From a virus (taxonomy: Duplodnaviria; Heunggongvirae; Uroviricota; Caudoviricetes): a DNA stretch of 11,651 bases. Below, piece by piece: positions 1,564-7,711 of the stretch. A program made the translations under genes and the position numbers. The notes under the pieces are model-generated. The model made no database searches and was not told the origin of the DNA. It was given only the letters and a program-made list of their open reading frames with translations. Location: IMG/VR virus record IMGVR_UViG_2657245006_000001. One strand, 5' to 3'. How positions within the stretch are numbered: position 1 is the stretch's first letter; each line of letters begins with the position of its first letter.

Positions 1564-1719
1564 TTACTCCTCAGGTTCGTAAGCTGTGAAGACAGCGACC
1601 TCCGTCTGGCCGGTTCGGATTCGTACCTCGCAGAGGTCTTTCCTCGTTACCAGTGCCGTCACTATGACGGTTAAACAGATGACGATCAGGGCGATTAACA
1701 TCGCCTTTTGCTGCTTCAT
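1564..1719 (-). CDS. hok: Hok/Gef-family type I toxin, 51 aa
   Basis: Hand translation gives MKQQKAMLIALIVICLTVIVTALVTRKDLCEVRIRTGQTEVAVFTAYEPEE: one N-terminal transmembrane helix and the conserved Hok periplasmic tail with Cys. AAGGAG lies 9 nt upstream of the ATG at 1719. Not in the ORF track because it is under 60 aa. Recalled as near-identical to HokD (RelF). Confidence 0.85.
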   Translation of the reverse strand: MKQQKAMLIALIVICLTVIVTALVTRKDLCEVRIRTGQTEVAVFTAYEPEE

Positions 1720-1775
1720 AGCCTGCTTCTCCTTGACCTTTCGGTCCGTAAGAGGCTAATCTCTATGTGTCGCAT
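1716..1775 (-). CDS. Mok-like leader ORF (19 aa) whose stop overlaps the hok start codon
   Basis: ATG at 1775..1773 opens MRHIEISLLRTERSRRSRL. Its TGA (1718..1716) overlaps the hok ATG (1719..1717). Resembles the mok/hok coupling arrangement but is much shorter than plasmid R1 mok; Shine-Dalgarno is weak. Confidence 0.3.
   Translation of the reverse strand: MRHIEISLLRTERSRRSRL
1733..1762 (+). promoter_or_regulatory. Candidate Sok-type antisense promoter facing into the hok leader
   Basis: TTGACC (1733-1738), 18-nt spacer, TAATCT (1757-1762) on the plus strand. A transcript starting near 1769 would be antisense to the leader-ORF initiation region (start 1775). A hairpin GCGTC-ttgcag-GACGC (1801-1816) flanked by direct TAATGTTAA repeats lies downstream. 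Confidence 0.3.
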
Positions 1776-1977
1776 AGATATGGCCTCAGATTAATGTTAA
1801 GCGTCTTGCAGGACGCGTAATGTTAACTGGGGCTTTTCTCTATCTGCCTTTTGGTGTTCATGCCTGAGACAGATAGCCTCAAGCACCCGCAGTCATTCTA
1901 CTTAACTAAGATTTCCCCGCAAACCGTTTTTGTCCGGCACAGTAAATATCCAACTAAACCAATGGCGTTCGCTGTAT

Positions 1978-2157
1978 TTACCGCCAGTATTCAATGCACA
2001 TGACCGCCATGAACACCCCTAAAAAAAGGGCATTTATATATCCAAATATTAATATCAAAACATCAACTTTTTCCATATACCTTGCTGTGAAGATGATGGG
2101 CATACATGATACGAACAACCAGAACGCAACAAACAAAAACTGCAATGCGTTTTTCAT
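1978..2157 (-). CDS. Small membrane protein, 59 aa, two predicted transmembrane helices, in an AT-rich island
   Basis: ORF-track ORF 1978..2196 trimmed to the ATG at 2157..2155, which has AGGAGG 4 nt upstream. Product MKNALQFLFVAFWLFVSCMPIIFTARYMEKVDVLILIFGYINALFLGVFMAVMCIEYWR has two hydrophobic stretches. Sampled lines here hand-count to about 32-37% GC against roughly 50% for flanking genes. Confidence 0.55.
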   Translation of the reverse strand: MKNALQFLFVAFWLFVSCMPIIFTARYMEKVDVLILIFGYINALFLGVFMAVMCIEYWR

Positions 2158-2327
2158 TATTCCTCCTACAATCAATGTGCAATTACATTTAAACACACCT
2201 CAATTTGGCCGGACATATAAATATCTAAACCAGAAAAAATCACTTACATAGCGTTACAAACTCTTTAGTCTAAATATTCATCGTAAAACATTCCCCATAC
2301 TTATCAGCCCGTTCTGCGCCAGGTAGC

Positions 2328-2644
2328 TCATTGCCTTATCTGGGAATCTGTAATCAGGTTTCCGGATGCTGGTGGATTTTCGCGTTTTAGTTGTTCATAA
2401 AAGTGCACAGCTTTAACCAGTTCTTCTGATGTAACCGGGACTGGCGGGGCAGTGAATAAGGCCTGAATTTCATAGTTCGGCCTGTCGTTACAATCCTCTT
2501 TTTTCGGTACATATTTCCAGTCACCAGACCACTACTTCCCCTGAAAGTCCGTAACGCCTTTTTTTTCACGTAGCGATATCGCCATGCCACTGTTTTTGCT
2601 TGCCCCGCCGTTTCATGCCCTTCCTGATAATTAACCTCGCTCAT
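2328..2644 (-). pseudogene. Disrupted small gene: reading frame breaks between an A8 and an A6 tract
   Basis: Frame 1 from the ATG at 2644 gives the 85-aa track ORF with odd basic composition. A different frame gives a protein-like tail (...EIQALFTAPPVPVTSEELVKAVHFYEQLKRENPPASGNLITDSQIRQ) running to a TGA at 2328-2330, past the frame-1 stop. That frame contains an in-frame TAG (2532-2534) and an upstream ATG at 2585. The A8 run is plus T8 at 2559-2566. Confidence 0.3.
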
Positions 2645-2817
2645 TCATCGCCCCACTCATCACAATATGCTTCGACCGGAGTTTTTCCTGCTTCATAATC
2701 ATCACGCCATGCTTCAGCATCAGCAGCACTGCCACCACGTAACTCTGCATAGTCCATTAACAGTTCATGCCATTCTTCAAAACTGACGTTGTATTTAGTT
2801 GAACCAAAATCAGCCAT
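2641..2817 (-). CDS. Small acidic protein, 58 aa
   Basis: Hand translation gives MADFGSTKYNVSFEEWHELLMDYAELRGGSAADAEAWRDDYEAGKTPVEAYCDEWGDE. Its ATG overlaps the stop of the upstream 60-aa gene by 8 nt (ATGGCTGA), and its TGA overlaps the next ATG (ATGA). Not in the ORF track because it is under 60 aa. Confidence 0.5.
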   Translation of the reverse strand: MADFGSTKYNVSFEEWHELLMDYAELRGGSAADAEAWRDDYEAGKTPVEAYCDEWGDE

Positions 2818-2992
2818 TTTGTTCTTCCTCTTCGTCTTTTATTTCGTGATATGAGTAATTGCAGTAGTTAAAGAAAATATCTTTTGCTTCGTCATGTATT
2901 TCATCAGGCGTCGCATCATCATCCACTTCGAATTCATCCTCGAAATCTCCACCGGCTATTCCCGTTTCAATAATTATTTTAAACTTTCGCAT
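2810..2992 (-). CDS. Small highly acidic protein, 60 aa
   Basis: ATG at 2992..2990; product MRKFKIIIETGIAGGDFEDEFEVDDDATPDEIHDEAKDIFFNYCNYSYHEIKDEEEEQNG with a very acidic C-terminal half. Preceded on the mRNA by GGAGG, then a hairpin, then 7 nt. Confidence 0.55.
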   Translation of the reverse strand: MRKFKIIIETGIAGGDFEDEFEVDDDATPDEIHDEAKDIFFNYCNYSYHEIKDEEEEQNG

Positions 2993-2999
2993 TTAACTA

Positions 3000-3015
3000 C
3001 CGCCCTTTCGGGCGG
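3000..3015 (-). promoter_or_regulatory. GNRA-tetraloop hairpin between the Shine-Dalgarno and start codon of the 60-aa gene
   Basis: Minus-strand RNA reads GGAGG (3020..3016), then CCGCCC-GAAA-GGGCGG (3015..3000), then UAGUUAA, then AUG (2992). The loop is GAAA only on the minus-strand transcript (UUUC on the other strand). No U-tract follows, so it is not a terminator. Confidence 0.4.
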
Positions 3016-3085
3016 CCTCCTGATGTTCTGAGGGTGCAGAAATCCCTCCGGTTAAGGATTAAATTTTTAACAGAGCTAAATTTAA

Positions 3086-3442
3086 TTATTCAGTTCTGGA
3101 TTTTGTCGCCCTGCGTATCCGCGCTTTCGCGTTACGCTCAATCTGAATTAGCTTTTCTATATTTTTTCGCCTTTCCCGCTCCTCCTGACGCAAGAGCCTT
3201 ACATCATCTGCCAGTCTGGTTTCTCTTTTCGCCACAGAGAGCATCCAGTCAAATGGCTCCACAACTGCACCGCAGATTTTACAGCGGACCTGACGCTCTT
3301 TTTCGTCAACCCGGACAGAGGCGTGATGACAATATGGTCTTTCCGATGGCTCATAAAGAAAATTAACCTGATTACGAGGGTCATCCTCTTTTACCGGAAA
3401 TAAAACGATATTGCTTAACTCATCCTCTGGTTTTATTTCCAT
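3086..3442 (-). CDS. Hypothetical protein, 118 aa, Cys/His cluster and basic coiled-coil-like C-terminus
   Basis: Preferred start is the ATG at 3442..3440 with AGGAG 6 nt upstream (MEIKPEDELSN...). The track ORF extends to a GTG at 3499 directly after the upstream stop, a possible alternative. Motif YCHH...RCKICG, then an RE/K-rich tail. Confidence 0.55.
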   Translation of the reverse strand: MEIKPEDELSNIVLFPVKEDDPRNQVNFLYEPSERPYCHHASVRVDEKERQVRCKICGAVVEPFDWMLSVAKRETRLADDVRLLRQEERERRKNIEKLIQIERNAKARIRRATKSRTE

Positions 3443-7313: not shown

Positions 7314-7668
7314 TAGCTAACCAACGAAGCTAAGGTTGGTAATTAAGGAGTTCTCCACGGGTGAGGTGGAGTGCGTGCGCCGGACACGGGTGAGCATCCG
7401 GCACTGACAGTTTACTGAAAGGATATTTCCCTGAAAAGTCAGACCATAACGCGAAAGCGCACGGCGAGGTAGCTGGTTCATAGATAGCCTGTCGTTAAAT
7501 TTTCGTCGACCGTGCGCTTCCGGTTGTGGCAACCCGCGAAATGGTGCGGCGGTAAGTATGGCGGGGTTATTTCTTCCCCGTTGAGGACACCGGGTTGTCA
7601 GGTTGACCATACGCTTAAGTGACAACCCCGCTGCAACGCCCTCTGTTATCAATTTTCTGGTGACGTTT
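7314..7668 (+). other. GC-rich structured non-coding block with no ORF (candidate structured RNA, regulatory element or gene remnant)
   Basis: All three plus frames are full of stops; the only minus ORF (7317..7652) starts at a non-ATG codon and is Arg-rich. Perfect stems: 7455-7464 with 7510-7519 (10 bp), 7592-7600 with 7620-7628 (9 bp), 7379-7384 with 7397-7402, 7320-7325 with 7335-7340. CACGGGTGAG repeated at 7356 and 7385. A sampled line hand-counts to about 60% GC. Confidence 0.3.
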
Positions 7669-7711
7669 GGCGGTATCAGTTTTACTCCGTGACTGCTCTG
7701 CCGCCCTTTTT
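7669..7711 (+). terminator. Candidate intrinsic terminator at the end of the structured block
   Basis: GGCGG (7669-7673) pairs with CCGCC (7701-7705); an imperfect inner stem extends the hairpin; T-run at 7707-7711 follows. A U-tract exists only for the plus strand. Confidence 0.4.

Follow-up and report, generated by a model that had tools for sequence, protein, structure and literature searches.

Is the small coding region that reads from position 2644 to 2328 on the minus strand a gene in decay, or is it a gene that slippage at its homopolymer tracts can switch on and off? Both readings had been offered in a preliminary description made from the letters, in which no single frame gave a clean protein. 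We analysed the locus within the whole 11,651-nt stretch of DNA, hereafter the window, and we are highly confident that it is a pseudogene, hit several times, of an accessory gene of PHROG family 660 in a lambdoid E. coli prophage. The preliminary description of 2328-2644 was largely accurate, but it left the minus strand unstated and missed two deletions as well as a relic of the gene that extends to 2278.

The pseudogene status of the locus is already known, as RefSeq/PGAP flags it. In E. coli MS6198 the annotated pseudogene MS6198_RS31675 (NZ_CP015834.1, 1431022-1431338) is labelled “hypothetical protein; frameshifted; internal stop”, and its interval corresponds exactly to window 2644-2328, with identical sequence across the 801 nt that were compared. 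The 801-nt region around the feature is found at 99% identity or more in 629 RefSeq E. coli records. The PGAP call differs from our description in that it ends at the stop of the 104-aa frame and mentions neither the two deletions nor the C-terminal relic. At full length, the window and its MS6198 counterpart (1422015-1433665) are identical around the feature but not colinear across all 11.6 kb; a comparison position by position breaks down, which points to one or more indels or mosaic segments in other parts of the window relative to MS6198.

The window is an E. coli lambdoid prophage that resembles Qin and Rac. Its gene content includes an integrase, an excisionase, an exonuclease, dicB, the DicF RNA, ydfC, ydfB, and repressor and cro-like genes, together with YdaT, replication genes, DUF977 and DUF7167 genes, and then the 58-aa gene, the feature itself, sok/hokD, DUF968 and RusA. 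The pseudogene has the replication genes on one side and the hok/sok and nin-like region on the other. A promoter and terminator scan of 1900-3200 gave nothing relevant, and an Rfam scan of the window returned sok and DicF only, with no match in the feature region. The sok antitoxin RNA is full-length (106.7 bits) and lies beside hokD (window 1717-1888 and 1564-1719, both on the minus strand), while the DicF sRNA (76.7 bits; window 7655-7706, plus strand) lies beside dicB, ydfC and ydfB. These neighbours, sok/hokD on the one hand and DicF/dicB/ydfC/ydfB on the other, mark the prophage as Qin-like.

Intact relatives of the gene are common in E. coli prophages. A search with the protein repaired in silico retrieved 325 E. 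coli prophage homologues at E <= 1e-3, the best with 91% identity at 100% query coverage, and the intact homologues have sizes of 171, 119 and 104 aa. The repaired translation matches phrog_660, an “unknown function” family, with an E-value of 5.5e-28; Pfam and NCBIfam searches gave no match for it. An AlphaFold2 model of the 171-aa homologue P0007, built on a 30-sequence alignment, was too poor for a fold search (mean pLDDT 46.8, pTM 0.32). The position of the gene is conserved in the lambdoid early-right region of both phage vB_EcoS-689R5 and MS6198, directly after the DUF7167 gene and the 58-aa phrog_519 gene; in vB_EcoS-689R5 this position is occupied by an intact 119-aa gene (URC08893.1). 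The members of PHROG 660 (104-171 aa, among them URC08893.1 and the 171-aa P0007 and P0018) have in common with the window copy the N-terminal module MSE[IV]NYQEGHE...AWRYRYVKKGVTDFQ...GDWKYVP.KEDCNDRP.YEIQALF...FYEQ.KRENPP, the same position after the DUF7167 and phrog_519 genes, and the same ATGA coupling of the start codon to the upstream gene. This coupling had been recognized in the preliminary description and holds. By similarity and by genomic position the window copy belongs to PHROG 660; unlike the other members, it has no uninterrupted reading frame, being disrupted by a +2 frameshift, a TAG codon and two deletions.

We located the lesions by DNA alignment to intact alleles of 171, 119 and 104 aa, of which the 171-aa form shares the downstream flank of the window (Table 1). 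Such an alignment had been proposed as a check in the preliminary description, and it placed the indel and the nonsense change as well as both deletions. Relative to the 171-aa form there are four lesions: two additional nucleotides in an A run, the TAG, a deletion of 90 nt and a deletion of 61 nt. The preliminary description had assigned the breaks to an A8 and an A6 tract, and for the A8 tract this assignment is correct. The A8 tract is the sole frameshift within 2644-2387 and also the sole homopolymer of eight or more bases in the 11.6-kb window. The A6 tract, on the other hand, is a substitution and not a break: none of the alignments contains an indel there, and the homologous frame runs continuously across it, with Lys-Lys in the window where the intact alleles have Thr-Lys.

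Past the A8 tract the homology continues in a second frame, which reads GVTDFQGK, then the TAG, and then WSGDWKYVPKKEDC...ENPPASGNLITDSQIRQ (in full, WSGDWKYVPKKEDCNDRPNYEIQALFTAPPVPVTSEELVKAVHFYEQLKRENPPASGNLITDSQIRQ), running beyond the stop of the 85-aa ORF to the TGA at 2330-2328. Both the protein-like tail in another frame and the in-frame TAG had been noticed from the letters, and our alignments agree on the two points, the TAG being located in the homologous frame.

Table 1. Features of the PHROG 660 pseudogene and its surroundings (window coordinates).
Feature	Position	Strand	Remarks
Whole pseudogene relic	2278-2644	minus	From ATG 2644-2642 to the ancestral TGA 2280-2278 (stop of the 171-aa form); aligned with intact alleles of 171, 119 and 104 aa
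Upstream 58-aa gene, phrog_519, unknown function	2641-2817	minus	Its TGA (2643-2641) and the ATG of the feature overlap as ATGA
85-aa ORF	2387-2644	minus	Residues 1-28 authentic N-terminus, residues 29-85 out-of-frame read-through; stop 2389-2387
A8 tract (T8 on the plus strand)	2559-2566	minus	+2 nt relative to the A6 of all intact alleles
TAG nonsense codon	2532-2534	minus	Codon 37 in the homologous frame, 8 codons past the tract; CAG, CCG, CTG, ATG or GCG in intact alleles
A6 tract, no lesion	2499-2504	minus	ACAAAA to AAAAAA by one C-to-A substitution (Thr to Lys)
AATCCACCAG, lone remaining copy of the imperfect 10-bp direct repeat AATCCRCCAG	2369-2378	minus	Junction of the 90-nt in-frame deletion
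Junction of the 61-nt deletion, frame-shifting	about 2361-2364	minus	New tail SGNLITDSQIRQ, then stop
TGA stop of the truncated 104-aa frame	2328-2330	minus	End of the PGAP call
Relic of the ancestral C-terminus, third frame	2278-2343	minus	PDKAMSYLAQNGLISMGNVLR, then stop; compare PEKAMDYLKRNGLISVEDVLR in P0007

In the 171-aa form, two copies of AATCCRCCAG flank 90 nt that correspond to 30 codons (VETGAWKD...ADNPP), and the P0007 protein accordingly shows a duplicated ENPP/DNPP motif. The deletion at 2361-2364 measures 61 nt against the 171-aa form and 57 nt against the type of allele found in PhiR42_1, and P0001, P0002 and L023, which are 104-aa alleles with an otherwise open frame, share this junction. 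Because both deletions are common to open 104-aa alleles, the immediate ancestor of the window copy was probably a 104-aa form.

Other copies carry different damage. The allele of phage PhiR42_1 (PV340562, 10155-11010), which is of the type with A6 and TAG, keeps the 57 nt that are missing from the window and has a second in-frame TAG (SGN-stop-INGL...); compared with the 171-aa form it has also lost 4 nt. The dead-gene lineages have gathered differing lesions. Two proteins of 105 aa, P0003 (WP_461949013.1) and P0060 (from 10 Logan contigs), keep the A8 frame shift (KKKALRTFRGSSG...), and their protein sequences make it appear that a second indel downstream returns the homologous frame. The TAG is bypassed in both, which leaves a 105-aa ORF open, with 9-30 scrambled residues in its middle. 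Either genuine second-site events or faulty assembly could account for them.

To see how tract length and reading frame are associated, IMG/VR was scanned for the conserved sequence that flanks the tract, and 120 loci were analysed. The tract is A6 in 75 out of 75 intact (open-frame) alleles and is thus fixed wherever the gene is intact. Among the 46 disrupted alleles we found A6 with TAG, A6 with one G lost (also with TAG), A7 with TAG and A8 with TAG, plus three contigs in which A8 is combined with TGG. Every IMG/VR allele with a change in the tract is frame-broken, and all but these three also have the TAG. The length of the tract follows the SNP haplotype: copies that are 0-2 SNPs away from the window have A8, apart from a separate A7 sub-clade, which is set off by 8-9 differences in 1.1 kb, and the alleles with A6 and TAG are 22-47 SNPs away.

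A set of 5,426 complete E. coli genomes was queried with exact haplotypes of 67-71 nt. Copies with the flanks of the window number about 927, in 918 of these genomes, and essentially all of them contain the TAG, so that it occurs in every flank-sharing tract variant. The counts of the TAG haplotypes are about 476 for A6, 51 for A6 with a lost G, 61 for A7 and 339 for A8, and one for A9 (sum about 928), and they are approximate, since the bins at 99% identity or more hold a few partial alignments (13 of 14 in the A9 bin) and the A6 bin was drawn from a wider hit set; the figure for A8 rests on the exact 70-nt haplotype. Neither A8 nor A6 combined with TGG has an exact match in the 5,426 genomes, a result which for A8 with TGG covers exact copies (megablast, 28-nt exact word). 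In the PGAP annotation the A9 allele bears the remark “internal stop”, and those with A7 and A6 the remark “frameshifted; internal stop”. Pooled over codons 1-91, dN/dS is 0.35 for intact and 0.67 for dead alleles; the pairs are non-independent and the positional slicing is unchecked for indels, and the contrast agrees weakly with drift after gene death.

How may the gene have come to its present state? The ancestral gene was about 171 aa long and translationally coupled through ATGA to the gene of 58 aa upstream. Its four lesions in this lineage are the in-frame loss of 90 nt between the two AATCCRCCAG repeats, the frame-shifting deletion of 61 nt, which leaves a 104-aa ORF with a new tail, the change of a sense codon to TAG at codon 37, and the expansion of the A6 run to A8. 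Both deletions may have arisen by repeat- or microhomology-mediated recombination, and the expansion probably by replication slippage. We infer that the TAG preceded the changes in the tract, and that the A run drifted only once selection on the reading frame had been lost. The order of events is blurred because of recombination in this mosaic region, and the contigs with A8 and TGG, two of which (L019 and L050) have an open -1 frame, indicate that in some backgrounds the frameshift may be the first or only lesion. Of the two possibilities raised at the outset, decay is the one to which the +2 frameshift, the nonsense codon, the two deletions and the PGAP label all point. We expect no functional product from the locus; it would give at most an 85-aa junk product from the coupled start or, after a -1 slip, a peptide of about 37 aa.

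Could the 85-aa ORF nevertheless be a genuine gene as written, with the similarity in the other frame being coincidental or vestigial? Its ATG is coupled to the upstream gene, and with this good start it may be translated. Certain pipelines list it as a hypothetical protein (at least 1000 contigs), and an independent second indel, in which A6 is followed by one G fewer, leads into the same frame and yields an 84-aa ORF. However, the 85-aa sequence is limited to near-identical copies, with 47 distinct members in its 90% cluster, whereas the homology of every diverged relative lies in the other frame, over the whole length. The preliminary description had named conservation of the 85-aa protein as written as evidence against its own reading, and such conservation is not observed. 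Furthermore, residues 29-85 have no family match, and the ORF is not retained in the A7 and A6-TAG alleles of this lineage. The openness of the alternative frame was considered as a sign of selection and rejected: intact alleles, in which this frame is never read, already keep it open for 40 codons, and its openness therefore looks compositional. We regard a genuine 85-aa gene as very unlikely; from its sequence relationships, the ORF is an out-of-frame read-through and not a conserved protein. The point is one of annotation, as several pipelines still call this out-of-frame ORF a hypothetical protein.

The case for recoding is that programmed -1 frameshifting or transcriptional slippage restores the homologous frame in the window copy and makes a real product. 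The heptamer A_AAA_AAG is an efficient dnaX-type -1 motif in E. coli. In the zero frame from ATG 2644 the window reads GTG AAA AAA AAG, which puts A_AAA_AAG in register, and since the A8 tract creates this in-frame heptamer, some ribosomes probably shift to -1 in the window allele. What they would find there is GVTDFQGK and then the TAG, only 8 further codons. The site shares with dnaX-type frameshifting the identical heptamer in the correct zero-frame register, but it lacks a substantial conserved -1 product, a downstream hairpin and conservation of the shift site. The segment 2600-2500 of the minus strand folds with -20.3 kcal/mol, which is not significant against shuffles (z -0.55), and inspection of GGCGATATCGCTACGTG by eye revealed no obvious SD-like stimulator. 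The heptamer exists only in the mutant A8 allele, as the intact alleles with their A6 need no shift. A_AAA_AAG motifs in E. coli have been surveyed (PMC4066793), and we came across no mention of the gene in this survey. Taken for the window copy, recoding into a real product is highly improbable.

The rare alleles with A8 and TGG deserve a separate comment. They are located on the IMG/VR contigs L019, L050 and L103 (tract at L050:1358-1394). Past the in-register A_AAA_AAG, L019 and L050 keep the -1 frame open for about 142 codons up to the ancestral stop, in the 171-aa architecture, and this speaks for recoding; against it speaks the absence of the A8-TGG combination, as an exact match, from the complete genomes. 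L103 has unrelated sequence in place of its 3' part. One could imagine that the A run is a recurrent slippage hotspot and that L019 and L050, which have A8 without the TAG, leak the full 171-aa protein via -1 frameshifting or transcriptional slippage. We hold this to be unlikely. If it were true, a frameshift mutation would be partly self-rescued by the slippery site that it creates, and the window allele would be a later, fully dead descendant. The window allele itself is beyond rescue because of its TAG.

The other reading offered at the outset was an on/off switch, in which slippage of the A run toggles a contingency gene between ON and OFF states. As in the contingency loci of Haemophilus, Neisseria and Campylobacter, a coding homopolymer lies exactly at the point where the frame is lost, and its length is polymorphic within the species, with A6, A7, A8 and A9 all seen in E. 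coli. Moreover, the A9 allele lies close to that of the window, with 3 SNPs between them in 1.39 kb. A6 and A9 both restore the frame, yet the TAG follows 8 codons downstream at every tract length, so that these in-frame lengths are still null and no tract length opens the gene; two further deletions lie downstream as well. Unlike in contingency loci, there is no ON-state length that gives an intact ORF, and the tract, which is A6 in functional alleles, is short and shows no variation where the gene is intact. The variation also lies between clades and not within them: length is inherited with the SNP haplotype and does not vary among identical haplotypes, the sole near-identical variant being the one A9 copy against about 339 with A8. 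We give the switch hardly any credence and drop this part of the preliminary description. A false lead is thereby removed, as a homopolymer at a frame break resembles a phase-variation switch while the population data show a gene that is already dead. The locus may serve as a small illustration of how decay differs from contingency, with a single tract state in all 75 of the intact alleles sampled as opposed to five states in the roughly 927 TAG-bearing copies.

Finally, that an otherwise intact gene was merely misread at its homopolymer has practically no chance of being correct: homopolymer-length errors are common on some sequencing platforms, but the exact A8-TAG haplotype recurs in about 339 independent complete genomes and in several phage and viral contigs, a replication across assemblies that refutes an artefact, and neither the TAG nor the deletions are homopolymer errors.

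Some observations concern the neighbours of this multiply hit pseudogene. Between it and sok/hokD lies a very hydrophobic ORF of 59 aa (MKNALQFLFVAFWLFVSCMPIIF...; window 1978-2157, minus strand) with a strong AGGAGG ribosome-binding site just upstream. PGAP leaves it unannotated in MS6198, deposits on at least 1000 contigs give it as a hypothetical protein or a putative membrane protein, and it matches no Pfam, PHROG or NCBIfam family. On the opposite strand, an 85-aa ORF (window 1994-2251, plus strand) is named “hornerin” in the phage records ON470612 and ON470619; both the call and the name are almost certainly spurious. In E. coli ATCC 8739 (NZ_CP022959, 2272588-2274055) an internal stop makes the DUF7167 gene a pseudogene, and in strain CP53 this gene is shortened, with an IS5 just upstream. 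In view of this decay of neighbouring small genes in ATCC 8739 and CP53, selection on the whole accessory block seems relaxed in some lineages.
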